NCBI GenBank assembly: GCA_963805065.1 | Contig: CAWDSS010000010.1 | Span: 664,359-728,358, forward strand | Reading direction: 5' to 3' | Source of the DNA: Candidatus Omnitrophota bacterium | GTDB taxonomy: Bacteria > Omnitrophota > Gorgyraeia > Gygaellales > Profunditerraquicolaceae | DNA: 64,000 nucleotides | Shown here: piece after piece, positions 2,790 to 44,338 of the stretch | Position numbering within the stretch: the first letter of the stretch is position 1 | Layout of the letters: every line of letters starts with the position of its first letter | Notes under the pieces: generated by a model | What the model was told of the DNA's origin: nothing | What the model saw: only the letters and a program-made list of their open reading frames with translations | Database searches by the model: none | Made by a program: the position numbers and the translations under genes

Positions 2790-2804
2790 GTTTAATCAAT
2801 ATGC

Positions 2805-2921
2805 TGTGTAACGTTTAATGTTTAATGTGTAACGTGTGTGTAATGTTTAATTGTGTAATGACATTACACTTTATTTTGCGTTACACTGGCATTACACATT
2901 ACACTTTACACATTACACATA
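2805..2921 (-). repeat. GTGTAAT-word intergenic repeat, copy A (reverse orientation on + strand)
   Basis: The reverse complement aligns almost base for base with 27355-27483 and 43406-43535. It lacks about 12 nt of the central loop. It fills the glmS-stop to rsmI-start gap. Confidence 0.9.
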
Positions 2922-2925
2922 CTTA

Positions 2926-4764
2926 TCATTCTACCGTCACAGACTTGGCAAGATTGCGCGGCTGATCCACATCACAGCCTCTTTTAACAGCGATATGATA
3001 CGCGATAAGCTGCAAAGGAAGAGCCACTAAAAGCGGAGAGAACAATTCGCTGCACTTGGGTATATAAATAACTTCTTTGGTTTGTTCTTTGATTTTTTCA
3101 TCGCCGCGGCTGGCAATGGCGATGATTTTTCCTTTGCGCGCGCGTATTTCCTGTAAATTGGAAATCATTTTTTCATAGACTTTAGATTCACAGGCAATAC
3201 AAACCACTGCGCGGTATTCATCGATAAGGGCTATCGGGCCATGCTTCATTTCACCCGCTGCATAACCTTCAGCCGGTATATAAGAAATTTCTTTTAATTT
3301 TAATGCGCCTTCCAGCGCAGAAGGAAAATTAATATTCCTACCCAGGTACAAAAACGAACCGAAGTGAGAATGCCTGCGTGCTAATTTGCCGATATTGTCC
3401 TGATCTTTTAAAATCTCTTCCTGCTGCTTAGGGATTCTCTGTAATTCTGCGAGGTATTTATTTATCGCATCTTGAGTCAGGATATTTTTAATTCCGGCAA
3501 GATAAAACGCGAACAGATAAAGTGCTGTCAATTGTGCAGTGTATGCCTTTGTAGAGGCAACTCCGATCTCTGGGCCTGCGTGGGTATAAATTACGCCATC
3601 TGACTCCCGGGTCAGGGTTGAACCCAGGACATTGCAAATAGACAATACTGGTACGCCCAGTTTCTTTGCCTGGCGCACACCGGCTAAAGTATCTGCCGTT
3701 TCACCGGATTGGCTTATGGCAATAACCAGGGTTTGCTTGTCAATAAGCAAATCTCTGTATCTAAATTCGCTGGAAACATCAACCAGCGTCTGTATGCCGC
3801 ACACCGATTCTATAATATACTTACCCACCAAGCCTGCATGATACGCTGTGCCACATGCTACAATGGCAATATTTTTTATGTTTTTCAGCTGTTCTTCGGG
3901 GATATGTTGTTCTTCAAAAATTATTTTTCCGGTTTTACTTTGGATCCGCGCACTAATCAAATTTTCTAAAATGCTGGGCTGCTCATTGATTTCCTTGAGC
4001 ATGAAATGCTTGTATCCCTGTTTTTGCGCCTGAGTTATATCCCAATTTATTCTTGTGGGGGTCTTTTTAATCACCTTTCCGTTAAAATCGGTTACTTTAC
4101 AGCTGTTTTTTGTCAAAACAGCTATTTCATTTTCTCCTAAAAAGATAATGTCTTTAGTTGCGTCCAGTATCGCAGGCGCATCCGAAGCTAAGAAATTTTC
4201 TCCCTCCCCTACTCCCACAATCAAAGGGCTTCCTAAGCGGGCACCGATAAGCTTATCGGGTTCTTTCGAGGAAATAACCCCGATTGCAAAAGAGCCTTCT
4301 AATTTTGGCAGGGCTTTTCTTACTGCTTCTTCTAAACTCCCGTTCTTGAAAAATTTTTCTATCAAATGCACGATTACCTCTGTGTCGGTCTGGCTGGCAA
4401 ATTTATGGCCTTCTTTTATCAGCTGCTGCTTAAGCTGGGCATAATTTTCAATAATGCCGTTGTGGACAATGGCAATTTGTTGTTTGCAGTCTGCGTGCGG
4501 GTGGGCGTTAATCTGATTGGGCTCTCCGTGCGTTGCCCATCTTGTATGAGCAATTCCCACTGTACCGGCGAGAGGTTTTTTGTTAAGCAGGCTTTCCAGG
4601 GCTTTAATCTTTCCCTGTGTTTTTCTTATGGAGAGGGTGTTTTTCTTGGGCAACAGAATCGCCATGCCGCTTGAATCATATCCGCGGTATTCTAAGCGTT
4701 TTAATCCGCTTAAAAGTATCTCTTGTGCCTGTCTTTCTCCAATGTAACCAACTATTCCACACAT
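2926..4764 (-). CDS. glmS: glutamine--fructose-6-phosphate aminotransferase (isomerizing)
   Basis: 612 aa. Starts MCGIVGY (N-terminal nucleophile Cys), has two SIS domains and ends ...AKSVTVE. Confidence 0.97.
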   Translation of the reverse strand: MCGIVGYIGERQAQEILLSGLKRLEYRGYDSSGMAILLPKKNTLSIRKTQGKIKALESLLNKKPLAGTVGIAHTRWATHGEPNQINAHPHADCKQQIAIVHNGIIENYAQLKQQLIKEGHKFASQTDTEVIVHLIEKFFKNGSLEEAVRKALPKLEGSFAIGVISSKEPDKLIGARLGSPLIVGVGEGENFLASDAPAILDATKDIIFLGENEIAVLTKNSCKVTDFNGKVIKKTPTRINWDITQAQKQGYKHFMLKEINEQPSILENLISARIQSKTGKIIFEEQHIPEEQLKNIKNIAIVACGTAYHAGLVGKYIIESVCGIQTLVDVSSEFRYRDLLIDKQTLVIAISQSGETADTLAGVRQAKKLGVPVLSICNVLGSTLTRESDGVIYTHAGPEIGVASTKAYTAQLTALYLFAFYLAGIKNILTQDAINKYLAELQRIPKQQEEILKDQDNIGKLARRHSHFGSFLYLGRNINFPSALEGALKLKEISYIPAEGYAAGEMKHGPIALIDEYRAVVCIACESKVYEKMISNLQEIRARKGKIIAIASRGDEKIKEQTKEVIYIPKCSELFSPLLVALPLQLIAYHIAVKRGCDVDQPRNLAKSVTVE

Positions 4765-10228: not shown

Positions 10229-11320
10229 TTAACTTAGCCGCATGGGCAGAACTATATAAACATAACCGTTTGTGCGAATAACCCCGGGTTTTTCACTGTC
10301 TGTTAATTCCAACTCAACAGAATCAATACTTAAATTTTTTAACACATCAATTAAGTATGCGGGGTTAAACCCTATGGCCAGTTCTTTACCTTGATATTCT
10401 ACGGGCAATTCTTCCCTGGATTCCCCGATATCGGGTGTGGATTTGGAAACAACCAATTTATTCTTAAACAACTCCAGCTTAACAGCCTGATAATCCGGGG
10501 TTGATAACAACGAGGCTCTTCTAACCGCCAATAAAAATTTGTCCCGCTCGGTTTTCATAACATTATTAGACGGTGCAGGCACTACCTGTTTATAGTCCGG
10601 GAATTCTCCCTCTATCAACCGGGAAATTACAATTACATTACCCAAATCAAACAATACCTGGTTATTGCCTAATATTAAAGATAATTCCCCCTCATCTTTT
10701 AAGTTGCGGTTTAATTCGTGTATGGTTTTAAGCGGTATGATAAAAGATGCCTCTTTATCCAATTCCTGTTTTAATTTTTTTTCCATAATCGCCAGCCGTT
10801 TACCATCCGTAGCTACTAAAGTAAGGTTGTTTTTATTAATCTTAAATAAGATGCCGTTTAAGATATATCGTGTCTCATCTATAGATACCGCAAAGGAAGT
10901 GAGGCCTAACATTTGCTTTAACCCGGCCTGCTCTAATTTAGTCACTTCTTTATCTTTAAATTCCGGTAGTTTAGGAAATTCTTCACGGGCTAAGCCCATA
11001 ATCTTAAACTGGCAGGATTCTGTTTCAATAACCACAAGGTTATTCTTTTTAGTGGTTATATTCACATTATCACTGGGTAATTCTTTGATTATATCGTTAA
11101 ATCTTTTAGCTGGGATGGTAATGGCTCCGACTTCCTGAATATCCACAGGTATTACACAACTTATACCGATATCCAAATCTGTTGCGGTCAACCTTAATCC
11201 GTTTTGTTGCGATTCAATTAAAATATTGGATAGTATTGGTAAGGCTGATTTTGTGCTAATAACGTTTTGTACTATTTGTATGCCGTTCATCAATGTGTTT
11301 TTTTCCGCTTTGAATTTCAT
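10229..11320 (-). CDS. dnaN: DNA polymerase III beta sliding clamp
   Basis: 363 aa with a three-domain clamp-like sequence, ending ...YVYIVLPMRLS. Immediately downstream of dnaA. Confidence 0.94.
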   Translation of the reverse strand: MKFKAEKNTLMNGIQIVQNVISTKSALPILSNILIESQQNGLRLTATDLDIGISCVIPVDIQEVGAITIPAKRFNDIIKELPSDNVNITTKKNNLVVIETESCQFKIMGLAREEFPKLPEFKDKEVTKLEQAGLKQMLGLTSFAVSIDETRYILNGILFKINKNNLTLVATDGKRLAIMEKKLKQELDKEASFIIPLKTIHELNRNLKDEGELSLILGNNQVLFDLGNVIVISRLIEGEFPDYKQVVPAPSNNVMKTERDKFLLAVRRASLLSTPDYQAVKLELFKNKLVVSKSTPDIGESREELPVEYQGKELAIGFNPAYLIDVLKNLSIDSVELELTDSEKPGVIRTNGYVYIVLPMRLS

Positions 11321-11459
11321 TGTTCCCTCTCCTTCTATTATTATAAATATATATTATAAATCATAATAGTAATAATGGTTTTTGTTTTTGTGAAGAAATC
11401 TATAATTTATATAATTTAATAGGGTTATATTAAATAAATACATTTAACAACCAGTGAAT

Positions 11460-12800
11460 TTACTGTTTAATGACTTGTATAACCCTCTCTACCCTGTCTT
11501 TTAATTCCGGCCTCCGATTAATTTCTTCTTTAATTTTATTATATGAGTGTAATACGGTAGTGTGGTCTTTGCCTCCAAAAAAATTGCCTATTTCAGGCAA
11601 GGATAGATCTGTCAACTCTCTACTGAGGTACATGGCGACTTGCCTGGGCAGCACAATGGTTTTATTACGCCGCTTTGTCTTAATATCTTGTAGAGAAATC
11701 CCGAATTCTTCTGAAACACAACGCTGGATAAAATCAACCGTAATTAATTTTTTCGGCTCTTTTAATAAATCTTTTAATACCTCGCGGGTTAAATCCAGTG
11801 TTATGGGCTTTTCTTCTAATAATGAATAGGCTATGGTACGGATAAGCGCTCCCTCTAATTCCCTGATGTTGGTTTTAATAAGCTGGGCGATAAAAAATAT
11901 AACATCATCCGGCACAGATACGGGTTCCCGTTCAATTTTCTTTTTGAGTATAGCTACCCTGGTTTCTAGGTCCGGAGGCTGTATGTCGGTTGTAAGCCCC
12001 CAGCCAAACCTGGATACCAGCCTGTCTTGCAGATTGGCAATTTCTTTAGGCGGCCTATCAGAGGAAAAGATAATTTGTTTATGTGCATCATACAATGCAT
12101 TAAAGGTGTGGAAAAATTCTTCCTGGGTAGATTCTTTCCCGGCAATGAAATGTATATCGTCAATGACCAGCACATCCACATTTCTATATCTTTGCCGAAA
12201 AGATGCGGTTGAGTGGTGTTGTATCGCATCTATTAATTCATTGGTGAAGCGCTCGGAAGACATATAGCAAATCTTCAGGCTGTTATTAGAGGATTTGCTT
12301 TTGACGTGATGGCAAATTGCCTGTATTAAATGTGTTTTTCCCAGCCCCACCCCACCGTAAATAAACAACGGATTATAAGTCTTGGCAGGAGATTCTGCTA
12401 CTGCCAGGGAATATGCGTGTGCGTGGCGGTTAGATGGGCCGACCACAAAATTTTCAAATGTGTACCTGGAGTTAAGGCCCCAGGTATTAGAATCTTGAGG
12501 CTTCTGTTTTTCCTCTGGCTGTTTAGTGGAATCTTGTAAAGGCCTGGGTGATGAGCTGGCCTGAAGGTGTACGGATATGGCTGTGCTTACGCCTGGCTGG
12601 TTAATCGCCTCTGTTATCAAGGATTTGTAGTGCTTCTCCACCCAGTCCCTGAAAAAAGTATCCGGGGCCTCGATGATTATGCTATGCTCGTCCTTTTCTT
12701 TGGCTTGTAAAGGTAGAATCCAGGTGGTAAAAACAGTTTCCCCTACTCTGTTTTTAAGGTATTCCTGGGCTTGCTGCCAAGTCTTGATTATGTCCGCCAT
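11460..12800 (-). CDS. dnaA: chromosomal replication initiator protein DnaA
   Basis: 446 aa with Walker A GGVGLGKTHL, Walker B VLVIDDIHF, and the C-terminal DNA-binding domain ...VLPRQVAMYLSRELT...IGNFFGGKDHTTVLHS. Confidence 0.97.
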   Translation of the reverse strand: MADIIKTWQQAQEYLKNRVGETVFTTWILPLQAKEKDEHSIIIEAPDTFFRDWVEKHYKSLITEAINQPGVSTAISVHLQASSSPRPLQDSTKQPEEKQKPQDSNTWGLNSRYTFENFVVGPSNRHAHAYSLAVAESPAKTYNPLFIYGGVGLGKTHLIQAICHHVKSKSSNNSLKICYMSSERFTNELIDAIQHHSTASFRQRYRNVDVLVIDDIHFIAGKESTQEEFFHTFNALYDAHKQIIFSSDRPPKEIANLQDRLVSRFGWGLTTDIQPPDLETRVAILKKKIEREPVSVPDDVIFFIAQLIKTNIRELEGALIRTIAYSLLEEKPITLDLTREVLKDLLKEPKKLITVDFIQRCVSEEFGISLQDIKTKRRNKTIVLPRQVAMYLSRELTDLSLPEIGNFFGGKDHTTVLHSYNKIKEEINRRPELKDRVERVIQVIKQ

Positions 12801-13169
12801 ATTTACATATTAACAGCTTATTCACATCTTGGATAAATCTGTGGAAAATGCTGTGGGCTAGAAAATACTTTACACATGCTTACAATTTTCTGCTCCAACG
12901 AAACAATACAAGAATTATATCAGAAGCAAAACGCTTTGCAAGAAAAAAAGATAAGCCTCTAAATTAAGCGCCCCGGAGAGGGCAAATTTTTAAATGCCCC
13001 GGCAGAGAAACGCGAATTATTATACAATAATTTTTATTACCGTCAACTAAAAAGAAAAATTGTGCAAAACCAGCGCAGTTGTTAACAATCCAAATGCGCC
13101 TTGCGCCCGCTCGTCCCGACGGGAAACCCGGGCGACTTAAGGCATGTGATTTTTTCCGGGAAAATAGCA
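12801..13169. other. candidate oriC (dnaA-rpmH intergenic region)
   Basis: DnaA-box-like 9-mers lie just upstream of dnaA: TTATTCACA (12818-12826), the reverse complement of 12840-12848 (TTTTCCACA), and TGGATAAA (12830-12837). AT-rich tracts are present. The gene-strand switch is absolute here. A second AT-rich tract lies at 11321-11459. Confidence 0.55.
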
Positions 13170-13197
13170 TTGACTTAATGTTGCTTTGTGTTATAAT
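13170..13197 (+). promoter_or_regulatory. sigma70-like promoter of rpmH
   Basis: TTGACT (13170-13175), 16 nt, TATAAT (13192-13197), about 40 nt upstream of the rpmH RBS AAGGAG. Confidence 0.5.
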
Positions 13198-13238
13198 TTA
13201 AAAATTCTGGACTTAAAGCATAAGGAGTAATTTAGGAA

Positions 13239-13376
13239 ATGAAGAAAAATTTAAAGACCCCCACAAATATTGTGGGTAAACGTAAACACGGCTTTAGAAG
13301 CAAGATGGCTACAAAGTCAGGCAGAAAAGTGCTCGCCAGACGGCGTCAAAAAGGCAGAAAAAGAATAAGTCTTTAA
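13239..13376 (+). CDS. rpmH: 50S ribosomal protein L34
   Basis: Not in the track because it is 45 aa. Translation [45 protein letters not shown] shows the typical L34 basic pattern. An RBS TAAGGAG lies upstream. Confidence 0.9.
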
Positions 13377-13591
13377 TGCTTAAGCAAATACCCCTTAGCC
13401 TTATTAGCATATATCAAAGGTATATAAGATTGATTTTGCCTTCGAGTTGCCGCTTTTCACCCAGCTGCTCCGAATACGCAAGGCAGGCAATTATAAAGTA
13501 CGGCTTTGTTAAAGGCTCTTTAAAAGGCGCAAAAAGACTTTTTTTGTGTCATCCCCTTTCCCACAAAGCCGGATACGATCCCTTAATATAA
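13376..13591 (+). CDS. yidD: membrane protein insertion efficiency factor YidD
   Basis: 71 aa with the conserved CRFxPSCSEY motif (SCRFSPSCSEYARQAI). The start overlaps the rpmH stop (TAATG). Confidence 0.85.
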   Translation: MLKQIPLSLISIYQRYIRLILPSSCRFSPSCSEYARQAIIKYGFVKGSLKGAKRLFLCHPLSHKAGYDPLI

Positions 13592-13594
13592 CTT

Positions 13595-15121
13595 ATGGAA
13601 AAACGTTTAATTTTAGCTATTGCACTATCATTATTAATACTACTTTCCTGGTCTGCGTTCGTCTCCAAAATATATCATATTGAAAATAAAGAAGTTACAA
13701 CTACAAAAACCGAGCTCCCCAAGGCCGAATCCAGCCCGAATATAACCCCTGCAGAAATCGCTGAGCAAGAAATACCCCCCTCTTCTTTATCAAAATTTGT
13801 GGGAGAAAAATTTACCATTACCTTTGTTGATTCCGCAGCTGCAATTAAGGAAGTAAAATTTCATAACCACCAGGATTATAATTTCCTACTGGTTAATGGA
13901 TTCATGTTAGGCGATAAGGCGCTTCAGTTTAAGAGGACTAGTTCATCAGATGACACGGTAACATTTGTCTGCGACGGCCCTATCTATCGCATTACAAAAA
14001 TATTTACAATACATAACTCTAATTATACCATGGAGTTATATATTAAAATCCAGAACATTTCTCAAGACGCGGTAAAACTTGAATTGCCCTTGATGTTAGG
14101 AACACTGGACTTCTCCTCCAACAGTATGGATTCCCGCTATCAAGATGTGGCTGCTGAAACCCAGGAAAAGATTGTGCACTTGAATGCGCAAAAAAATACA
14201 GACATTCAGGATATTAAATTTTTAGCCATCAGAGACAGATATTTTTGTGCGATTGTTGAGCCTGGTGAAAATACCTGGAATGCTTTTGTGCGCAAAGGCA
14301 ACTCAAAAAAATCAGAAGCCGGCTTAAATTTACAGTCCATGTCTCTGGTACCCAGCCAACAGGTTGAGAAAAAATTCTCTATCTATTTGGGGCCACAGGA
14401 TTTAAAACTAATCAACAGCATTAAGCCTAGCTGGTCTGCAATAATTTATTATGGCACCTTTGATTTCATTGCGCAATTGCTGTTACAGCTATTGGGATTT
14501 TTGTATGGCCTAGTGCATAATTGGGGTTGGGCAATTGTATTATTAAGCCTGTTAATCTATTTTATCCTATACCCCTTAACTTTAAAGCAAATGCGCTCTA
14601 TGAAAGAAATGCAGATTCTGCAGCCTAAAGTCGAAGAATTACGCAAAACTTATAAAGACAACCCGCAAAAGTTAAATAAAGAAATCATGGAATTATACCG
14701 GGTACACAAGGTTAATCCTTTAGGCGGATGCTTACCGCTGTTATTACAAATGCCCATATTTTTTGCTCTTTATCAGGCTTTAATGCGTTCGGTGGCTTTA
14801 AAAGGAGCGCATTTCTTGTGGATAAAAGATTTGTCCCAGCCGGATCGCCTATTCGTAATTCCTGCAACCTTACCGGTTTTGGGCAATGAAATTAACATTT
14901 TGCCGATAATTATGACAATAGGTATGTTTATACAACAAAAATTCACTATGGCCACAGCAACTTCTGGTACTTCAGCTGAGCAGCAAAAAATCATGATGTT
15001 GGTTATGCCGTTAATGTTTGGATTGATTTTTTACCATATGCCAGCTGGTTTAGTGTTGTACTGGTTTATCAACAGTACGCTAATGTTAATATACCAGATT
15101 CGTATAAGCAGAACAAAATGA
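13595..15121 (+). CDS. yidC: membrane protein insertase YidC
   Basis: 508 aa with an N-terminal TM helix, a periplasmic domain and the C-terminal 60-kDa insertase core (...NPLGGCLPLLLQMPIFFALY...). Confidence 0.92.
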   Translation: MEKRLILAIALSLLILLSWSAFVSKIYHIENKEVTTTKTELPKAESSPNITPAEIAEQEIPPSSLSKFVGEKFTITFVDSAAAIKEVKFHNHQDYNFLLVNGFMLGDKALQFKRTSSSDDTVTFVCDGPIYRITKIFTIHNSNYTMELYIKIQNISQDAVKLELPLMLGTLDFSSNSMDSRYQDVAAETQEKIVHLNAQKNTDIQDIKFLAIRDRYFCAIVEPGENTWNAFVRKGNSKKSEAGLNLQSMSLVPSQQVEKKFSIYLGPQDLKLINSIKPSWSAIIYYGTFDFIAQLLLQLLGFLYGLVHNWGWAIVLLSLLIYFILYPLTLKQMRSMKEMQILQPKVEELRKTYKDNPQKLNKEIMELYRVHKVNPLGGCLPLLLQMPIFFALYQALMRSVALKGAHFLWIKDLSQPDRLFVIPATLPVLGNEINILPIIMTIGMFIQQKFTMATATSGTSAEQQKIMMLVMPLMFGLIFYHMPAGLVLYWFINSTLMLIYQIRISRTK

Positions 15122-15318
15122 CACAAAAAACATCTATTGAAGTAGAGGGAAAAACAGTAGAAGAAGCAATTAAAAAGGCACTTAAAGAATTAAAGCTTGC
15201 CAGAAGCAAGGTAAAAATAGAGGTACTTTCCGAAGAAGAAAAAGGCTTATTTGGTATGCCTGGCGCAAAGCCAGCTAAAGTCAGGGTGAGCTTAAAAGAG
15301 AGCAAAGAAAATACTTGA
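15118..15318 (+). CDS. Jag/KhpB N-terminal-domain protein (short; no KH/R3H domains)
   Basis: 66 aa reading IEVEGKTVEEAIKKALKELKL...VKIEVLSEEEKGLFG, which matches the Jag_N pattern. It sits in the conserved position after yidC with an ATGA overlap. Confidence 0.7.
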   Translation: MTQKTSIEVEGKTVEEAIKKALKELKLARSKVKIEVLSEEEKGLFGMPGAKPAKVRVSLKESKENT

Positions 15319-15342
15319 CAACGCAGCTATTTTTAAGATAAT
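15315..15342 (+). promoter_or_regulatory. possible promoter of parAB
   Basis: TTGACA (15315-15320), 16 nt, GATAAT (15337-15342). Confidence 0.35.
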
Positions 15343-15397
15343 AGAAGTATAATTAACGTAGTTTCGCGTGGAACATCGCGTAACTATCGAAATATCA

Positions 15398-16183
15398 ATG
15401 GGTAAGATTATTACAATTTGTAATCAGAAGGGCGGCACAGGAAAAACAACCTCGGCAATTAATCTGGCTGCATATCTTGCTATGGCCGGCAAGAAAGTTA
15501 TGCTTATTGATTTGGATCCCCAGGCCAATGCTACCAGCGGCATAGGAATAAATAAACACAATATCAAACAAAGTACTTACCATGTTCTTTTGGAAGAGCT
15601 GGAAATCAAAGAAATTCTTCAGTCCACGGCAATTAATAATCTATTATTAGCGCCATCTAATTTGGACTTGACTGGCGCAGAAGTGGAATTAGTAGGCGCC
15701 CTAGGAAGAGAATACAGGCTAAAAAGAGCCCTGGTTAAAGAAAAAGATAACTTTGATTTTCTGCTTATTGATTCACCGCCTTCCTTAGGCTTATTAACTA
15801 TTAATGGATTGTGTGCAGCTGACTCTGTGCTTATTCCTGTTCAGTGTGAATATTATGCACTGGAGGGATTAACGCAACTCACTAATACTGTTAAACTTAT
15901 AAAGGATAATTTAAACCCTAATCTGGTTATTGAAGGCGTATTGCTGACCATGGCGGATTTCCGGACTAATCTAACTAAAGAAGTTATTCAAGAAGCAAGA
16001 AATTATTTTAAAGATAAAGTTTATACAACCGTGATCCCGCGCAATATTCGCTTAACCGAGGCCCCGAGTTTTGGCAAGCCGATTCTCTTGTATGATAAAG
16101 ATTCTTTAGGCGCCCAAAAATATGAGGAGCTAAGCAGGGAAATGTTAGGTATGCCATTAACTACACCATCACAAATATCTTAA
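15398..16183 (+). CDS. parA: chromosome partitioning ATPase ParA/Soj
   Basis: Deviant Walker A NQKGGTGKTT. The track ORF starts at the GTG at 15368. The ATG at 15398 (MGKIITICNQKGG) fits the family N-terminus. Confidence 0.92.
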   Translation: MGKIITICNQKGGTGKTTSAINLAAYLAMAGKKVMLIDLDPQANATSGIGINKHNIKQSTYHVLLEELEIKEILQSTAINNLLLAPSNLDLTGAEVELVGALGREYRLKRALVKEKDNFDFLLIDSPPSLGLLTINGLCAADSVLIPVQCEYYALEGLTQLTNTVKLIKDNLNPNLVIEGVLLTMADFRTNLTKEVIQEARNYFKDKVYTTVIPRNIRLTEAPSFGKPILLYDKDSLGAQKYEELSREMLGMPLTTPSQIS

Positions 16184-18449: not shown

Positions 18450-19091
18450 GTGGCGCCTAATCGTAATACAAGTTGCGGCTTAATATTTGTTATTTCCGGG
18501 CCGTCTGGCTCGGGTAAAACTACGCTGCGCGATAAGCTTCTTACGGATAGAGATTTAAGGGGGCAGTTTGTAAAATCAGTTTCCTTTACCACCCGCCAGA
18601 AGCGGTCCGGGGAAAGAAACAGAAAAGATTATTTGTTTATAACCGAGGGGGAATTTAAGAAGCGCTTAAGAGCGAAAAAAATTCTTGAATGGACAAAATA
18701 TTTGGGTTATTATTACGCCACATCCAAAGATTTTGTAGATAAGCAACTGGCAAATTGTAAGAATATTATTCTTTGCCTGGATTTAAAAGGCGCTTTAAGG
18801 ATAAAAAGGCTTTATCCAAATAATTCCCTAACCATTTTTATTGTTCCTCCGTCGATAAAATCGTTGCGGCAGCGTATTGAAGGCCGCTGTAACAGGACCA
18901 AGAAAGAAGAGATTCAAAAACGTTTAAGGCTTGCCAAGAAGGAATTGTCCTGCGCAGGCAAATACGATTTTACCGTAGTGAACAAAAATTTATCACAGGC
19001 TGTAAGAGAGTTAAAAGGGATTATATTAAAGAGTGCAAAAAGAAAAGGGGACGTTTCTATTTTTAACGTCTCCAGGGAAATGGAAAAATAG
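18450..19091 (+). CDS. gmk: guanylate kinase
   Basis: P-loop ISGPSGSGKTTL and YYYATSKDF motifs. The last ~16 codons (KRKGDVSIFNVSREMEK) are encoded by a repeated hairpin element. Confidence 0.88.
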   Translation: MAPNRNTSCGLIFVISGPSGSGKTTLRDKLLTDRDLRGQFVKSVSFTTRQKRSGERNRKDYLFITEGEFKKRLRAKKILEWTKYLGYYYATSKDFVDKQLANCKNIILCLDLKGALRIKRLYPNNSLTIFIVPPSIKSLRQRIEGRCNRTKKEEIQKRLRLAKKELSCAGKYDFTVVNKNLSQAVRELKGIILKSAKRKGDVSIFNVSREMEK

Positions 19092-19108
19092 AAACGTCCC
19101 CTTTATTT
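19044..19108 (+). terminator. conserved hairpin / intrinsic-terminator-like repeat, copy 1
   Basis: AAAGGGGACGTTTCTATTTTT, a ~19-nt loop, then AAAAATAGAAACGTCCCCTTTATTTT. The stems are identical to copy 2 at 44394-44458. Confidence 0.75.
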
Positions 19109-19144
19109 TCGTTAAACGTTACACAAATATAGCGAGGTAAAAAT

Positions 19145-23994: not shown

Positions 23995-25031
23995 TCGGGG
24001 ATATTATGGATATCGAGGCTATTAAAGCGCAAATAGAAGCGGATCTACAAAACGTAAATTCAGCACAAGGACTGGAAGCGTTTAAGCTAAAATACCTGGG
24101 CAGAAAAGGTGTTATTGCGGAACTCACCAGTTCAATTCCCGGACTGCCCCAGGAGCAAAGGGGCGCGTTTGGCAGGCAGGTTAATGAGCTAAAAAATAAT
24201 CTAGCTTGCGTAGTTACAGAGAAAGAGAAATTAATTTCTTCGGCGCCTGTCGAAGCAAGTATTCCTGGTTGCGATATGGGCATGCCTGGAATTGCCCAGG
24301 AGCTTGGGCATCTGCACCCCATTACACAGACTATCGATGAAATCTGCAGTATATTTGACCGCATGGGGTTTTCCATAATCGAGGGGCCGGAAATAGAGAC
24401 AGAATATAATAACTTCACCGGATTAAATATCCCGCTGGAGCATCCCTCAAGAGATGCATTCGATACATTTTATCTTAAATCGAAAAACCTGAACGAAGGC
24501 AAACTATTATTGCGCAGCCACACTTCACCCGTGCAAATCCGCGTAATGAAATCGCATAAGCCTCCTCTGGCGGTAGTTGTCCCGGGAAGGGTTTATCGGC
24601 CGGATGCGGTTGATGCATCGCATTCTTTTATGTTCCATCAGATAGAAGGTTTTATGGTAGATAAGTCCATAAAATTTTCTGATTTAAAAGGAATCCTGGA
24701 GGTTTTTGCCAAAGCAGTGTTTGGTAAAGATATTAAAATGCGCTTTAGACCCCACTTCTTCCCTTTTACAGAGCCCTCGGCAGAAGTGGATATTTCCTGC
24801 ATCATCTGTAAAGGCCAGGGTTGTTCTGTGTGCGGCAGGAAAGGATGGCTGGAGATTTTGGGCTCAGGGATGATTCATCCCAATGTATTTAAACATGTAG
24901 GTTACGACCCTAAGAAATATACGGGATTTGCTTTCGGCATGGGGATTGAAAGAATAGCCATGCTTAAACACGGTATTAATGACATCAGGTTATTTTTTGA
25001 AAACGATTTGAGATTCTTGAAACAATTCTGA
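23991..25031 (+). CDS. pheS: phenylalanine--tRNA ligase alpha subunit
   Basis: 346 aa with class II motifs (...RSHTSPVQIR..., ...FRPHFFPFTEPSAEVD..., GFAFGMGIERIAM). The start shows an ATGA overlap with rplT. The ATG at 24006 is also possible. Confidence 0.95.
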   Translation: MIGDIMDIEAIKAQIEADLQNVNSAQGLEAFKLKYLGRKGVIAELTSSIPGLPQEQRGAFGRQVNELKNNLACVVTEKEKLISSAPVEASIPGCDMGMPGIAQELGHLHPITQTIDEICSIFDRMGFSIIEGPEIETEYNNFTGLNIPLEHPSRDAFDTFYLKSKNLNEGKLLLRSHTSPVQIRVMKSHKPPLAVVVPGRVYRPDAVDASHSFMFHQIEGFMVDKSIKFSDLKGILEVFAKAVFGKDIKMRFRPHFFPFTEPSAEVDISCIICKGQGCSVCGRKGWLEILGSGMIHPNVFKHVGYDPKKYTGFAFGMGIERIAMLKHGINDIRLFFENDLRFLKQF

Positions 25032-25091
25032 GTTAGTTCTCGAGTTCGTGAGCTGTTGAGTTAGCTTAAGAACCCAAGAACCCAAGAACGA

Positions 25092-27131
25092 ATGAAAGTA
25101 ACGTATAACTGGTTAAAAGACTTTGTAGATATTAAAATTTCTCCTCAGGCGCTGGCGGATAAACTAACTATGGCCGGCTTAGAAGTAACTTCCCTGGAAG
25201 AAAAAGCAGGGGACTGCGTTTTTGAAATCGAAATTACTTCCAACAGGCCGGATTGGTTAAGCATAATTGGCATAGCCAGGGAAGTCGCTGCCATTACAGG
25301 TAGAAAATTGAAATTAGGTTCTAGGTTCTCGGTTCTAGGTTCTAGGAAGTACAGAGCAGCAAAGACCGGACAGATAAATATTATTATCGAAGATAAAAAA
25401 GATTGTCCTTTGTACACCGCTAAAATAATCAAAGATGTAAAGGTGGGCGTCTCGCCTGATTGGCTAAAAAAGCGGCTGGAATTAATCGGCTGCCGCAGCG
25501 TAAACAACATCGTAGATATTACAAATTATATTTTATTTGAGACAGGAGAACCATTGCATGCTTTTGATTTGGATAAATTAAGCCAAGATACAATAATTGT
25601 GCGTAGGGCCAAGCCGAATGAAAGCATAACCACTATTGACGGGGAGTCTAGAAAACTTAGCCCCGATATATTGGTTATTGCAGATAAAATAAAATGCGTG
25701 GCAATAGCTGGAGTTATGGGCGGAAAATATACAGAAGTTTCTACGGCTACAAAAAACGTGCTCTTAGAAGTAGCGGTGTTTAACCCTATAGTGATTCGCA
25801 AAGGGCGCCAGGCAATTGGATTACAAAGCGAATCTGCATACAGGTTTGAAAGAAGCGTAAATCCGGCAACAGTGGAATATGCGTCGAGCAGGGCAGCTGA
25901 ATTAATAAGCAAATTAGCCGGCGGCAAATGCGTTTGTGCAAAAAGTTCAGCCAAATCCGTATCCCAGGTCAGGAAAATTGCTTTATGCACTCCAACAGTC
26001 AACAAAATGCTGGGTATAAATTTATCAGCAGCCCAGATAAGGAGAATTTTAAATAGCCTAAGGTTTAAAACGAAAGGAAGAGCAAAAAACAATTTGTCAG
26101 TTGAAATTCCCTCGCATAGGCAGGACGTCAATTTAGAGATAGATTTAATTGAGGAGCTGGCACGCATATATGGGTTTGAAAATATCCCCAAAACATTGCC
26201 CGTGGTTACGCCAAGCCTAAGCAAAGACAAAACACAGGATTTAGTCAGCATCTCGAAAAATATTCTTAGGGGTTTGGGTTTAAATGAGGCGATTACCTAT
26301 AGCCTCATTGATAAAGAGTTGTTAAAAAAGTTTAGCTTAGGTACGCAAGAGTCGGTAATAGAAATTATGAATCCACTAAGCGAGGAACAGGAAATTCTCA
26401 GGCCAACGCTTATCCCCAGTTTAGTGCGCTGCGTTGCCGTAAACCTCAACCAAAAACAGGAATTCGTTAATATATTTGAAATGGCCAAGACATTTTCTCA
26501 CAATCAGCATAAAGAAGAACTGAGTTTGGGAATCGCTATGAGCGGCACGCGCCAATTAAGGCTTACGCAGGGCTTGATTAGAGAACAAGTTTGCTTTCTG
26601 CACTTAAAGGGCATATTGCAGGCACTGTTTGAAGGCATAGGCATTAAGAATTATGATTTTATAATAAAAGACAATCCTTCAATGGTAGATGTATGTGTAA
26701 ATAAGCAAAGAGTGGGAGTATTGGTAAACATATCTAAGGATACCCTAAGCAGCCTGGATATAAAAAATAAAGAAGTATTCGCAGCAGAAATTTCACTGGA
26801 AAAGCTTTTCCCAGGTGCCTCTTTACAAAAGAAATTCCTGCCGTTGCCAAAATATCCCGGGATTGCCAGGGATATAAGCCTTATCCTTAAGGACGATTAT
26901 GCCCTAAAAGATTTATTAACTGCAATAGAAGAAAAGGGAAAGCCTTTGTTAAGCAGCGTTAAGATCGTGGATTATTATTCAGGCAAGCAAATACCGGCGG
27001 GATACAGGGGCATGACTTTGTCTTGTTTTTACCGTTCTAATGAGCGCACCCTGACCGATGCAGAAATTAACCCCTTGCAGGCAATGATTTGCGAACTGCT
27101 ACAGCAGAAATTCGGCGCTAAGATCCGATAA
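25092..27131 (+). CDS. pheT: phenylalanine--tRNA ligase beta subunit
   Basis: 679 aa starting MKVTYNWLKDFVD..., with B3/4, B5 and FDX-ACB-like regions. It contains an in-frame (GGTTCTN)x4 heptamer array at 25317-25346. Confidence 0.95.
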   Translation: MKVTYNWLKDFVDIKISPQALADKLTMAGLEVTSLEEKAGDCVFEIEITSNRPDWLSIIGIAREVAAITGRKLKLGSRFSVLGSRKYRAAKTGQINIIIEDKKDCPLYTAKIIKDVKVGVSPDWLKKRLELIGCRSVNNIVDITNYILFETGEPLHAFDLDKLSQDTIIVRRAKPNESITTIDGESRKLSPDILVIADKIKCVAIAGVMGGKYTEVSTATKNVLLEVAVFNPIVIRKGRQAIGLQSESAYRFERSVNPATVEYASSRAAELISKLAGGKCVCAKSSAKSVSQVRKIALCTPTVNKMLGINLSAAQIRRILNSLRFKTKGRAKNNLSVEIPSHRQDVNLEIDLIEELARIYGFENIPKTLPVVTPSLSKDKTQDLVSISKNILRGLGLNEAITYSLIDKELLKKFSLGTQESVIEIMNPLSEEQEILRPTLIPSLVRCVAVNLNQKQEFVNIFEMAKTFSHNQHKEELSLGIAMSGTRQLRLTQGLIREQVCFLHLKGILQALFEGIGIKNYDFIIKDNPSMVDVCVNKQRVGVLVNISKDTLSSLDIKNKEVFAAEISLEKLFPGASLQKKFLPLPKYPGIARDISLILKDDYALKDLLTAIEEKGKPLLSSVKIVDYYSGKQIPAGYRGMTLSCFYRSNERTLTDAEINPLQAMICELLQQKFGAKIR

Positions 27132-27134
27132 CTG

Positions 27135-27162
27135 TTGACTAAATTATAATATGTGGTATAAT
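27135..27162 (+). promoter_or_regulatory. strong sigma70-like promoter with no ORF downstream
   Basis: TTGACT (27135-27140), 16 nt, TATAAT (27157-27162), directly after the pheT stop. Confidence 0.55.
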
Positions 27163-27169
27163 ATAATTG

Positions 27170-27356
27170 AAAAGGAAAAATAGCTCTTTTAGATTCCCTG
27201 CGGTGCGCGTTGGATATTCGATAATTGTTGAACCAACAGTAATTTAATGGGAACCCACAGATTCTTGGGCGCTTCGGCACTTAAGAGAGGGTACCCACCT
27301 GAAACCAAAACGGTTCAGACTGTCAATCCAACGGCACAATGCGGGGATTTTTTTTG
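27170..27356 (+). ncRNA. ~185-nt rod-like structured RNA, candidate 6S RNA (ssrS)
   Basis: It runs from the promoter above to a U8 tract (27348-27356). The 5' segment 27193-27215 (ATTCCCTGCGGTGCGCGTTGGAT) pairs with 27326-27347 (ATCCAACGGCACAATGCGGGGA). There is internal TGAACC/GGTTCA pairing and an apical hairpin with a UUCG loop (27263-27285). No ORF is present. Confidence 0.4.
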
Positions 27357-27483
27357 TGTAATGTGTAAAGTGTAATGTGTAATGCCAATGTAACGCAAAA
27401 CAAAGTGTAATGGCAAAAAGCATCTCCATTACACAATTAAACATTACACCCACGTTACACATTACACATTAAACGTTACACAG
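27355..27483 (+). repeat. GTGTAAT-word intergenic repeat, copy B
   Basis: Near-identical to 43406-43535. It ends 9 nt before the rarA ATG. Confidence 0.9.
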
Positions 27484-27492
27484 ATAAACAAT

Positions 27493-41751: not shown

Positions 41752-41757
41752 TTCTTA

Positions 41758-41808
41758 GCTTTCAGTCATCAGTTTTCAGTTGAGAGCTGACAGCTGAAGG
41801 CTGAAAGC
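41758..41808 (+). terminator. imperfect long hairpin built of TTCAG/CTGAA words (terminator-like)
   Basis: GCTTTCAGTCATCAGTTTTCAG, loop, CTGACAGCTGAAGGCTGAAAGC, starting 7 nt after the stop codon. The U tract is weak. Confidence 0.4.
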
Positions 41809-41851
41809 AAAATTCAATTTTAATTATCAAAAAGGGAGGTCGAGTAAACTT

Positions 41852-43405
41852 ATGTTAAATATAATCATTTTTATCGGTATTGCCTTGGTTGCAACAGGCA
41901 TAGGTTATTTTTTAAGAAAGCACGTCGCGGAACAAAAGATTCAAAATGCGGAATTGCAAGCGCAGCATATTTTAGAACAGGCTAAAAAAGAAACACAGGA
42001 CAGGCGCCGTGAAGCCGAATTGGAGGCCAAAGATCTTCTTTACAGGATGCGCCAGGATTTTGAGCGCGAGACCAAAGACAGAAGGCAGGAAATTTCCAAC
42101 CTGGAGAAAAGGCTTACGCAAAAAGAAGAAAACATCGATAGGAGACTGGATTTATTAGAAAAGAAAGAAAAGGAAATTGAGGCAAGGCATGAAAACATCA
42201 AAAAGCAGGAAGAGGCGCTGAAGCTCAAGGATAATCAGTTGCATTTACTCATCGCCGAGGAAAAAGACAGGCTGCAAAAAATTTCCTCTTTATCGGCAGA
42301 AGAGGCAAAACAGATTTTGCTTAGCCGCCTTAACGAAGAATTGAATGCGGAAAAAGCCGTGTTTATAAAGAGGCAGGAAGAGGAATTGCGCAGCATCTCT
42401 GACAAAAAAGCCAGGGAGATTTTAAGCCTGGCAATACAAAGGTGTGCCGCAGAACATACCGTGGAATCTACCGTAAGCGTAGTAACGCTTCCTAATGATG
42501 AAATGAAAGGAAGGGTTATCGGAAGAGAAGGTAGAAATATCCGCGCACTGGAAATGGCCACGGGAGTAGACGTTATTATCGACGATACTCCTGAAGCAGT
42601 AACCCTGTCTGCCTTTGATACGGTGCGCAGGGAAATTGCGCGGCTTAGCCTGGAAAAACTCATTGCCGACGGCAGAATCCATCCCGGAAGAATCGAAGAA
42701 ATAGTGGAAAAAACCAAAAAAGAGATGGATGAAAAAATAAAAGAAGAAGGAGAGCGCGCGGCATTTGAAGCAGGGGTTAACGGCCTGCATCCTGAATTGG
42801 TAAAGCTTTTAGGCAGGTTAAAATACCGCACCAGCTTCGGCCAGAATGCGCTGCAGCACTCCAAGGAAGTTTCGTTTCTATTGGGCATGATGGCGTCTGA
42901 GTTAGGATTGGATTTTAAATTGGGCAGGCGTATCGGACTATTACATGATATAGGCAAGGCCGTAGACCATCAGGTTGAAGGCACCCATGCAAAATTGGGA
43001 GCGGACCTGGCGAAAAAATATAACGAGCTGCAGGAAGTAGTAGGCGCGATTGAGGCGCACCACGAAGAAACTCAGCCTCAAAGCTTGTATGCGGTATTGG
43101 CAGTGGCAGCAGATGCCATAAGCGCTGCCCGGCCAGGCGCCAGGCGCGAGACCTTAGAGACCTATATAAAGAGGCTGGAAAAATTAGAGTCCATTGCCAA
43201 CTTGTTTAAAGGCGTTGAGAAATCGTTTGCCATACAGGCAGGACGCGAAATACGCGTAATCGTGCAGCCGGAAAAAATCACGGATACGGATGCAGTAAAT
43301 CTTGCCCGCGATATAAGAAAAAAGATAGAGGAAGGCATGGAGTATCCCGGACAGATTAAGGTTACTGTAATTCGAGAGACAAGAGCGATTGAGTTCGCAA
43401 AGTAA
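41852..43405 (+). CDS. rny: ribonuclease Y
   Basis: 517 aa with an N-terminal TM helix, a coiled coil, a KH domain ([15 protein letters not shown]) and an HD domain (LLHDIGKA). Confidence 0.95.
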
Positions 43406-43535
43406 TTGTGTAATGTGTAAAGTGTAATGTGTAATGCCAGTGTAACGCAAAACAAAGTGTAATGGCAAAAGCATTCCCATTACACAATTAAACATTACAC
43501 CCACGTTACACATTACACATTAAACGTTACACAGA
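43406..43535 (+). repeat. GTGTAAT-word intergenic repeat, copy C
   Basis: It fills the whole rny-stop to ymdB-start gap and is near-identical to copy B. Confidence 0.9.
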
Positions 43536-43543
43536 TAAAATAT

Positions 43544-44338
43544 ATGAATATTTTATTTATCGGCGACATAGTCGGCAGACCTGGCAGAGACGCAATTAAA
43601 CAACTCTTGCCAGAACTGCAAAAACAATACCAGCTGGATTTCGTGATTGCCAACGCAGAAAATGCAGCCGGAGGTTCAGGCATTACTCTCAAGGTGTCAG
43701 AGGAGCTTTTTAATTCAGGCATAGATGTTATTACGTCCGGTGACCACATTTGGAAAAAACAGGATGTCTTTGAGTTTATAAATCAAGAAGAAAGGATATT
43801 AAGGCCAATAAATTTCCCGGCAGGCGCTCCGGGAAGAGGTTTTAATGTATATAAAACAAAAGGCAACAAAATTTTAGGAGTGGTCAATGTAAATGGCAGG
43901 GTGTTTATGGAGCCGTTGGAATGTCCTTTTAGAACTACTCTCGCTGCCTGTGAGGAAATATCTAAAGAAACAAATATAATAATCGTAGATATCCATGCCG
44001 AAGCAACATCAGAAAAAATTGCCTTGGGATGGTATTTAGACGGCAAGGTATCCGCGGTCTTGGGCACGCATACCCACATACAAACTGCGGATGAAAGAAT
44101 TCTACCCCAGGGGACAGCCTTTCTTACGGATGCCGGCATGACCGGTCCGTATGATTCTGTTATCGGAAGAAAAGTCGAGGATGTATTAGAGAGATTTCTT
44201 ACTGCCATACCCACAAGGTTTGAAGTGGCATCAGAGAATATCCGGCTTTGCGGAGCAGTTCTGGATATAGACGATAAAACAGGTAAGGCGCGTTCGATTG
44301 AGAGAATTCAAAGAAAACTATTGCTTAATGACAAATGA
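43544..44338 (+). CDS. ymdB: YmdB-family metallophosphoesterase (2',3'-cyclic-nucleotide 2'-phosphodiesterase)
   Basis: 264 aa containing MNILFIGDIVGRPGR...NAENAAGG...GDH.... Conserved rny-ymdB synteny. Confidence 0.88.
   Translation: MNILFIGDIVGRPGRDAIKQLLPELQKQYQLDFVIANAENAAGGSGITLKVSEELFNSGIDVITSGDHIWKKQDVFEFINQEERILRPINFPAGAPGRGFNVYKTKGNKILGVVNVNGRVFMEPLECPFRTTLAACEEISKETNIIIVDIHAEATSEKIALGWYLDGKVSAVLGTHTHIQTADERILPQGTAFLTDAGMTGPYDSVIGRKVEDVLERFLTAIPTRFEVASENIRLCGAVLDIDDKTGKARSIERIQRKLLLNDK

Follow-up and report, generated by a model that had tools for sequence, protein, structure and literature searches.

A GTGTAAN-word palindrome at gene junctions of an Omnitrophota bacterium, probably a MITE-like derivative of an IVS-type PF05635 element

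Results

The window analysed here is a stretch of 64,000 nucleotides from a Candidatus Omnitrophota genome (contig CAWDSS010000010.1, positions 664,359 to 728,358 of the forward strand), in which an imperfect palindrome built of GTGTAAN heptamers occupies three gene junctions. [quoted passage not shown] The element is best filed as a MITE-like derivative, devoid of its open reading frame (ORF), of an IVS-type PF05635 element, and not as a dedicated host regulatory RNA. An initial annotation, made from the letters of the window, had described the repeat and favoured a function at the RNA or promoter level; its observation is confirmed as real and its interpretation is partly supported.

Copies of the element in the window

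The three near-identical copies of about 125 bp that had been reported are present, with their ends refined to the coordinates below. Copy C serves as the example for the parts of the element.

2803..2921, minus strand: copy A, an ORF-less palindromic element at the junction of glmS (2926-4764, minus) and a gene for an rsmI-like methylase (2136-2789, minus)
27353..27484, plus strand: copy B, starting inside the T-run that ends the 6S RNA gene and ending 9 nt before the rarA/mgsA start (27493)
43406..43535, plus strand: copy C, starting directly after the rny stop (43403-43405) and ending 9 nt before the ymdB start (43544)
43408..43464, plus strand: 5' arm of copy C, GTGTAAT GTGTAAA GTGTAAT GTGTAAT, spacer, GTGTAAC, spacer, GTGTAATGG
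43465..43476, plus strand: apical loop of copy C, CAAAAGCATTCC, the site of the 123-aa PF05635 gene in full-length relatives
43477..43535, plus strand: 3' arm of copy C, with the inverted words ATTACAC / GTTACAC / ATTAAAC, terminating in ...CATTAAACGTTACACAGA
19112..19125, plus strand: remnant, the exact 14-nt 3' terminus TTAAACGTTACACA of the element (0.03 chance matches expected)

The arms are indeed made of GTGTAAT/ATTACAC words, as the initial annotation had it. A 29-nt 5' arm sequence (GTGTAATGTGTAAAGTGTAATGTGTAATG) is identical in copies A, B and C, occurs nowhere else in the window and had no match in 100 shuffles, and the heptamer arrays return inverted in the 3' arm. GTGTAAT was found 25 times in the window against 4.8 expected, a five-fold excess, with 19 of the 25 lying inside the three copies. 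Across the family the element measures 115-160 bp and its termini are conserved as TYT-GTGTAA...TTACAC-ARA with A/T-rich flanks; the window holds three copies and one remnant per 64 kb, the remnant lying directly 3' of an unrelated terminator-like hairpin repeat. Copies B and C are almost identical and have the same apex and loop sequence. Copy A differs from copy C by four substitutions and by an apex that is 13 nt shorter, as it also is relative to copy B; its orientation is clear from the nhmmer scores (109 bits forward vs 50 reverse). Because 7 is 1 modulo 3, successive heptamer words shift the frame of TAA, so that each of the three frames meets one within 21 nt of the 5' arm, as seen in copy C. 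In full-length relatives, the PF05635 ORF starts at the counterpart of the inner ATG-containing word of this arm.

The neighbours were verified with Pfam and Rfam: glmS precedes copy A and the rsmI-like gene follows it, copy B stands between pheT plus the 6S RNA gene (27192-27351, Rfam 62.7 bits) and rarA/mgsA, and copy C separates rny from ymdB. The fixed geometry that had been noted for these sites is true of copies A-C and typical across the family, though not absolute. Gaps to the next start are short, but not the 9-17 nt first given: from ...CACAG to ATG they measure 14, 9 and 9 nt in A, B and C, respectively. The ORFs 27244-27462 and 43184-43513, earlier called spurious, exist in antisense and have only translated repeat in common.

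Relatives that enclose a PF05635 gene

The full-length partner was recognised by reading L185, a locus with widely separated arms (L numbers are labels of the compared loci). These arms enclose a 123-aa ORF that matches PF05635, '23S rRNA-intervening sequence protein' (E = 2.7e-29), and TIGR02436, 'four helix bundle protein'. A PF05635 ORF was found between the arms in L248, L249, L250, L251, L185 and L224, with the arms covering positions 3-68 and 73-134 of the element model; the gene therefore sits exactly in the apical loop of the short element. The short form retains ATGTGGAATG/ATGTGTAATGGAAAA, which are the first codons of the ORF (MWNGK), as well as the post-stop sequence TTTTAGCATTACAC. 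Homology to both ends of the ORF-bearing form, together with these retained codons and post-stop nucleotides, thus makes the short element an internal-deletion derivative. The initial annotation had seen a loss of about 12 nt of the apical loop in copy A as a sign that the hairpin is what is conserved. The loss is real (13 nt), but the apex is the scar of the PF05635 deletion and varies widely between copies.

Since copies B and C have one apex, as do all three copies in L130, the deleted form itself must have been copied to new sites, with B and C deriving from one deleted master. Copying of a form that lacks the ORF implies a factor that acts in trans. Short and ORF-bearing copies also occur within a few kb on one contig, where they have contig-specific arm signatures in common (L248, L249).

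Four to six GTGTAAN words, in a number that varies between copies, directly precede the ORF start. The full-length form was sense-oriented in all seven cases and, on the longer contigs, its PF05635 gene (X) stands between housekeeping genes on the same strand, e.g., proA->X->nadD and rpe->X->glmM in L248 and gatA->X->gatB in L249; in L251 it follows a gene for an SpvB-domain protein. Close PF05635 homologues are annotated in Omnitrophota metagenome-assembled genomes (MAGs), most of them on contigs shorter than 3 kb. The only structural relative found by sequence was the S23p pentamer of X. campestris (PDB 2GSC, E = 3.6e-7), and the enclosed protein also gave weak Avd-type matches (NF033474; PF22296 bAvd).

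Filled and empty junctions in related genomes

At the rny-ymdB junction, the three closest relatives found through YmdB have a 7-nt spacer (TAAttgtgctATG, L241), a 2-nt spacer (TAAaaATG, L243) or a 65-nt unrelated palindrome (L246). No element follows the 6S RNA T-run before rarA in L243 and L246; the spacer measures only 23-40 nt in relatives, and co-transcription is therefore the ancestral state there. In fact, no copy was found anywhere in the 20-kb syntenic loci of L241, L243 and L246. These three are closer to the window (YmdB 76-82% and RNase Y 93-95% identity) than L037 (74% and 90%), which has a copy at rny-ymdB with different flanks, so that independent insertion or repeated loss must be assumed. 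The glmS->rsmI junction is filled in the window and in L240, and in five further filled/empty pairs the empty junctions were spacers of 2-31 nt or ATGA overlaps.

Judged by sequence comparison, the window copies are insertions. According to the initial annotation, a neutral MITE would not show such a regular placement. That argument does not hold, as the element is missing from the same junctions in the closest relatives and truncated and solo-arm remnants exist. The tight fit between genes can be explained by insertion into the 0-30 nt spacers of compact genomes, where a tolerated insert must abut both a stop and a start.

Sequences similar to element termini are present in some empty junctions: L241:9994-10000 (TAAttgtgctATG, ttgtg), L241:17318-17329 (TAAttaaGTGTAAatATG, GTGTAA) and L124:7445-7452 (cTTGTGa). 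They were noticed post hoc, with a chance of roughly 0.003 for the L241 cases, and could be excision footprints or homology between target and element end.

Size, placement and orientation of the family

Public genomes and metagenomes were scanned for copies by pattern and then with an nhmmer profile. The first genome scan used a loose pattern (GTGTAAN x3), and many unrelated phyla and plain heptamer microsatellites were among the matches listed. Pattern and profile together recovered at least about 56 distinct full-length copies of the element, and among the matches listed all full-length relatives in named genomes were Candidatus Omnitrophota MAGs. The closest YmdB homologues of the window carry the Omnitrophota label as well. 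Forward and reverse nhmmer scores are usually 30-60 bits apart, so each copy has a definable orientation.

A simple ORF heuristic was applied to about 56 unique metagenome copies. The upstream stop usually precedes the element by 0-10 nt or is provided by the element itself, and the next start codon usually lies 4-25 nt past its end. The upstream ORF ends in the TAA of word 1 or 2 in about 12 copies, and so does gatA in L249. With strict criteria, 28 copies between co-oriented genes were sense and five antisense (p = 6.6e-5, among the matches listed and including some orthologous, hence non-independent, copies), two copies lay between convergent genes, and none was convincingly placed between divergent genes. 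The co-orientation with genes that had been claimed for the window is thus a real, non-random bias in the family, but antisense copies do occur between co-oriented genes (two in L249 and one each in L130, L210 and L073).

Loci L130, L248 and L249 contain two to three copies per 10-20 kb, and internally deleted versions and solo 5' arms were also found at gene junctions. No ORF was seen to contain the element, which has stops in every frame. Among viral contigs, 67 loci had the heptamer pattern, none of them with a full copy or a PF05635 gene, and there was no sign of a phage vector.

A few copies carry other repeats. The same nested 20-bp G+C-rich palindrome (CCTGCCTGCCGGCAGGCAGG) occupies the same 3'-arm position in L167:10667-10827 and L156:1594-1739, which come from different samples. 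In L199:2760-3071, about 200 nt of unrelated sequence lies between the arms, with inverted segments of the GTCATTCTGAGG...CCTCAGAATGAC type, apparently a nested insertion of another small repeat. Pure tandem GTGTAAN-like arrays of up to about 1 kb were seen in L099, L126/L140, L165, L176/L236, L188, L234 and L204/L223; these contigs belong to unrelated metagenomes and genomes, including Cytophagales, rumen and termite gut.

Folding, covariation and expression signals

Stable, long imperfect hairpins were predicted for all three copies, with energies of -38.6, -47.8 and -49.8 kcal/mol for A, B and C and z-scores of -4, -7 and -9. The stem of copy C is near-perfect, with runs of 10 + 3 + 15 bp. 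For 40 family members, 88.8% of cells were paired in the natural register. This register was imposed since RNAalifold, because the words repeat, produced an out-of-register fold (covariation term -0.11). With the register imposed on the 40 copies no covariation was detected, the score being at or below that of 499 of 500 shuffles. The only variable positions are the seventh bases of the heptamers, which are unpaired in 8-21 of the 40 sequences. What is conserved is the GTGTAA words and not the pairing, which is without evidence of selection; the proposal that the hairpin itself is conserved was not borne out. Folding energies of sense and antisense strands, compared as a G.U pair test, showed no systematic difference.

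A permissive Rfam search with copy C yielded only sub-threshold matches to generic long-hairpin miRNA precursor models. At the gathering threshold, Rfam assigned no family to the element in the whole window, and no rRNA match was found in the window. Promoter-like matches in a sigma-70 scan of the three copies stayed within the range of shuffled sequences and were not shared between the copies. Likewise, the intrinsic terminator scan returned no terminator-like site, and no U-tract follows the hairpin. The weak promoter-like match of copy C (ATTACA-18-TAAAAT, 9/12) ends 2 nt before the ATG, with its -10-like hexamer in the flank, outside the element.

None of the three downstream starts has a sequence resembling a Shine-Dalgarno (SD) motif, in agreement with the initial annotation, but this is not special: only about 14 of 46 window genes (~30%) have one by a crude count at the longest start of each gene. 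The suggestion of a leader that replaces the SD is contradicted by the normal SD kept downstream of the copies in L065, L200, L148 and L127. Moreover, ymdB lacks an SD also in element-free relatives.

Replication and transcription context

12801..13594, no strand: probable oriC (context, not part of the element), between dnaA (11460-12800, minus) and yidC (13595-15121, plus)

The order at 10229-16183 is dnaN (minus), dnaA (minus), a 0.8-kb spacer, yidC (plus) and parA (plus). GC skew changes sign at about 12-13 kb, where the gene strand flips, and on either side nearly every gene points with replication; an example of lagging-strand genes is the 55.3-57.5 kb region. Copy A is on one replichore and B, C and the remnant are on the other, all co-oriented with fork and genes; in the window, co-orientation with genes therefore cannot be separated from co-orientation with replication. 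Neither this origin nor the remnant at 19112-19125 was mentioned in the initial annotation.

Upstream of copy B, the 6S RNA promoter is near consensus (TTGACT-16-TATAAT with a TG extension, 27135-27162). The order pheT-6S-rarA and the terminal T-run are kept in L243 and L246, which points to co-transcription of 6S and rarA.

PF05635 genes and heptamer words in other lineages

PF05635 genes with inverted GTGTAA arrays on both sides also occur in MAGs that carry the labels Elusimicrobia (L252), Desantisbacteria (L253), Verrucomicrobia (L066) and Lysobacterales (L002). In other PF05635 lineages the tandem words differ: AAAAACAG in L130, TAGGGGR in L002b, GTAGTGA in L091 and CCTTACGTAA in L249b. 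The PF05635 gene of L082 is flanked by a plain 20-bp inverted repeat. Identity among the GTGTAA-flanked proteins of Omnitrophota, Elusimicrobia and Desantisbacteria is 51% or higher, against 31% or lower with the rest, and the two paralogues of L002, 44% identical, have different words.

Where the window or L168 has the GTGTAAN element, ORF-less palindromes on other words were found in other genomes. AGCGTAN heptamers fill glmS->rsmI in L132 (1601-1676), and an ACTACGA-type palindrome fills rny->ymdB in L246 (9936-10000). The second palindrome of L246 (17363-17456) consists of AACCTTAGG-type words, similar to the flanks of the PF05635 gene at L249:17470-17919. In the window itself, other word-palindromes occupy junctions at 25031-25092, 41755-41811 and 44323-44522.

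The palindrome at 25031-25092 has AAGAACCC words and lies between pheS and pheT; the one at 41755-41811 has NTTTCAG/CTGAAAN heptamers and lies between a 5-FTHF cyclo-ligase gene and rny. The third, a nested palindrome of about 200 nt with AATGACA/TGTCATT heptamer arms, begins at the ymdB stop (ATGA overlap) and is read through in frame by a GH39 ORF of 662 aa. The relatives, in which GH39 overlaps or directly adjoins ymdB, have GH39 ORFs of 608-639 aa. Possibly a palindromic element was inserted here in frame, in the N-terminal region of GH39. A second repeat family of the window, at 19039-19109 and 44381-44467, forms terminator-like hairpins whose 26-nt arms (AAAGAAAAGGGGACGTTTCTATTTTT) enclose a 19-nt loop and are followed by TTTATTTT; its first copy abuts the 14-nt GTGTAAN remnant.

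Other observations concern loci with PF05635 genes. In L252 (6438-9431, Elusimicrobia label), the UvrD helicase gene downstream of the PF05635 element has an intein (PF14890). A Desantisbacteria locus (L254:5900-8377, also L253) has two Y1_Tnp genes, resembling those of IS200 and of REP-associated tyrosine transposases (RAYTs; REP, repetitive extragenic palindromic), between housekeeping genes, each with REP-like hairpins (GTAACTCAGACCTTCAGGTCTGA) at its sides. A PF05635 gene and an OmpA gene of this locus separate the genes of the large and small aconitase-family subunits. In Flavobacterium columnare, a 'four helix bundle protein' gene between gmk and nadD is listed in a 'phage region' (PMC5524665, Table 5). 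By analogy with proA->PF05635->nadD in L248, this suggests that such F. columnare 'phage' calls may be PF05635 junction elements.

Discussion

The copies in the window probably go back to a full-length form that consists of two inverted GTGTAAN heptamer arrays around a 123-aa PF05635/TIGR02436 gene, inserted in short spacers between co-transcribed protein genes. The short form would have lost this gene, from about codon 6 through the stop, before it was copied to new junctions. The element is probably transcribed with its operon, because the full-length form leaves no room for a promoter of its own and was sense in all seven cases. In the transcript, the ~55-nt arms might fold into a long RNA hairpin and be cut by RNase III, by analogy with IVS stems and Correia elements (PMC4990558, PMC2649163). 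With such a cut, the neighbouring cistrons would be uncoupled and the insertion could be tolerated. With TAA in three frames and upstream genes terminating there, insertion at or near a stop never makes a read-through fusion. The PF05635 protein, acting in trans, would recognise the heptamer arrays and be needed for copying. A secondary effect on mRNA processing is likely.

Several points weigh against this explanation. No ORF-bearing copy occurs within the 64-kb window, and no recognisable transposase was found in the element, its protein being a PF05635/TIGR02436 four-helix bundle; we know of no catalytic activity in PF05635. No 2-6 nt k-mer was duplicated across the element ends beyond permutation expectation (54 copies, all offsets), in a scan that very short target duplications in A/T-rich flanks could escape. 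Purely neutral insertion does not account for the 28:5 orientation bias, nor for junctions filled in independent lineages: the window shares rny-ymdB with L037 and glmS-rsmI with L240, and L065 and L200 share the junction before rpsP. Proteins of L066 and L002a have GTGTAA-like words though they are only 16-30% identical to the main clade, which weakens a one-protein, one-word specificity. Finally, operon transcription and RNase III cutting are steps that we infer.

Some of these points would be accommodated if the repeat were an RNA element selected by the host, e.g., for processing, for mRNA stabilisation or as a leader that needs no SD. The orientation bias, the fixed site after stops and 4-25 nt before starts, the filling of the same junctions in different lineages and the stable predicted hairpins are what such an element should show. 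It should, however, also be kept at these junctions in the closest relatives, where it is missing, and be marked by covariation or by an energy advantage of the sense strand, neither of which was seen. Clear antisense copies, truncated remnants, unrelated word-palindromes at the same junctions (L132, L246) and downstream genes with their own SD in several copies further make a host-selected RNA unlikely. The initial annotation had also offered a terminator-promoter cassette, which would end the upstream transcript and start the downstream one. Copy B does follow the 6S RNA T-run and copy C has its 9/12 match, but no promoter or terminator consensus rises above chance, and this match takes its -10-like hexamer from the flank. 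With the hairpin lacking a U-tract and co-transcription ancestral in the 6S->rarA spacer of relatives, we see hardly any room for a cassette.

Movement as single-stranded DNA by a RAYT (Y1 HUH) transposase, as for REPs and REPINs (REP doublets forming hairpins), would explain the absence of target-site duplications together with the co-orientation with replication. The long hairpin form agrees with it, as do the window copies that follow the fork on both replichores and the Y1_Tnp genes with REP-like hairpins in one genome from a related habitat (L254). However, the gene enclosed by the arms is PF05635 and not Y1_Tnp, no Y1_Tnp gene adjoins any copy, and the L254 hairpins differ in sequence from the element. 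Furthermore, the arms are tandem direct heptamers and not imperfect palindromes of 20-40 nt with a GTAG/CGTC tag, by which REPs are defined (PMC3733652). A RAYT-type element is thus very improbable, if slightly less so than the cassette. Three other candidates were dropped: iterons or a polar DNA signal similar to FtsK-orienting polar sequences (KOPS), as the word occurs in both orientations within the element; a palindrome-associated transposable element (PATE) of the IS200/IS605 type, as there are no separate subterminal hairpins; and a coding function of the apex ORF, as the short peptides differ between B and C.

Among known systems, the MITE-like reading is best compared with the S23p IVSs of Coxiella burnetii, Leptospira and Brucella, which likewise have terminal inverted repeats that form a long stem (PMC4990558). 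The Coxiella IVS has a 28-bp terminal stem, an S23p ORF and a variable number of tandem GACAGAT heptamers by the ORF start, and is excised by RNase III; origin, mode of spread and protein function of IVS/S23p are unsettled (PMC4990558). The full-length relatives of our element have a gene of about 120 aa of the same family in the loop, lost from the window copies, and tandem heptameric direct repeats of variable number by its start. IVSs are also regarded as selfish and possibly mobile, with ORF decay. On the other hand, IVSs reside in helix 25 or 45 of 23S rRNA, whereas the element lies between protein genes or after 6S RNA; its word is GTGTAAN instead of GACAGAT, with heptamer arrays forming both arms; it is present in many copies per genome, most of them entirely without the ORF; and RNase III excision, shown for IVSs, is only inferred here from a substrate-like stem.

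Like MITEs, the element is small, has terminal inverted repeats, multiple copies and a longer protein-coding partner, and shows presence/absence at orthologous sites; unlike them, it has no transposase partner and no detectable target-site duplication. The Correia repeat enclosed elements (CREE) of Neisseria are similar imperfect palindromes of 100-150 bp with terminal inverted repeats, intergenic within transcription units (PMC2649163, PMC2229807, PMC10969869). CREE forms hairpin RNAs that bind RNase III and are cut or protected by it, its presence varies between strains, and it can alter flanking-gene expression. The enterobacterial repetitive intergenic consensus (ERIC) has the same likenesses, being a palindromic MITE transcribed with neighbouring genes. 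Neither shows sequence similarity to our element, in which no TA or target duplication and no promoter consensus was detected at the ends, the arms are tandem heptamers, and the ORF-bearing partner encodes a four-helix bundle instead of a DDE transposase.

REP/REPIN-RAYT systems are comparable as extragenic hairpin repeats without target duplication, REPINs being hairpin doublets of about 100 nt (PMC3116915, PMC3733652). Their families are also genome-specific and go with a cognate gene that is present once and has the repeat at its sides. In our element, by contrast, the cognate gene is PF05635, the tag is absent and the arms are direct-repeat arrays, not palindromes themselves. Rickettsia palindromic elements are short palindromic mobile repeats of reduced genomes, tolerated near or inside coding sequence. 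The 44323-44522 palindrome of the window, built on other words, is similar to them in being read through in frame by GH39. The GTGTAAN element differs in its stops in all frames and in not having been seen inside ORFs, and has no sequence relation to them.

Avd, which serves diversity-generating retroelements as accessory protein, is a member of PF05635 too (PMC10053308; PDB 4DWL vs 2GSC). It belongs to the same four-helix-bundle superfamily as the enclosed protein, but no reverse transcriptase, template repeat or variable repeat was found next to any copy of the element. Avd is said, by Alayyoubi et al. in 2013, to be a pentamer that binds nucleic acid and reverse transcriptase. Quite tentatively, PF05635 proteins could be the sequence-specific factor of a widespread, hitherto unnoticed class of mobile elements without a transposase, each lineage reading its own flanking 7-8-nt words and copying the element and its ORF-less derivatives into gene junctions and rRNA helices, with the 23S IVS as a special case. 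Possibly one word is read per pentamer subunit, as single-stranded RNA or DNA, and the route might pass through an RNA intermediate released by RNase III.

IVS elements and S23p proteins have been known since about 1990, and PF05635 is among the commonest 'hypothetical' families. The open-access literature gave no description of PF05635 genes as the core of junction-invading elements or of their MITE-like derivatives. Three things were not found together in the searchable literature: IVS-like elements outside rRNA, between housekeeping genes; ORF-less derivatives copied after gene loss, implying a trans factor; and tandem words that differ by lineage, flanking the PF05635 genes of six phyla or more. 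On the practical side, the repeats create spurious ORFs and N-terminal extensions and probably break assemblies. The question of what S23p is for becomes testable, through binding of the protein to its words, RNase III processing of operon mRNAs and mobilisation. The main interest of the element is the handle it gives on IVS/S23p biology and on how such elements spread.

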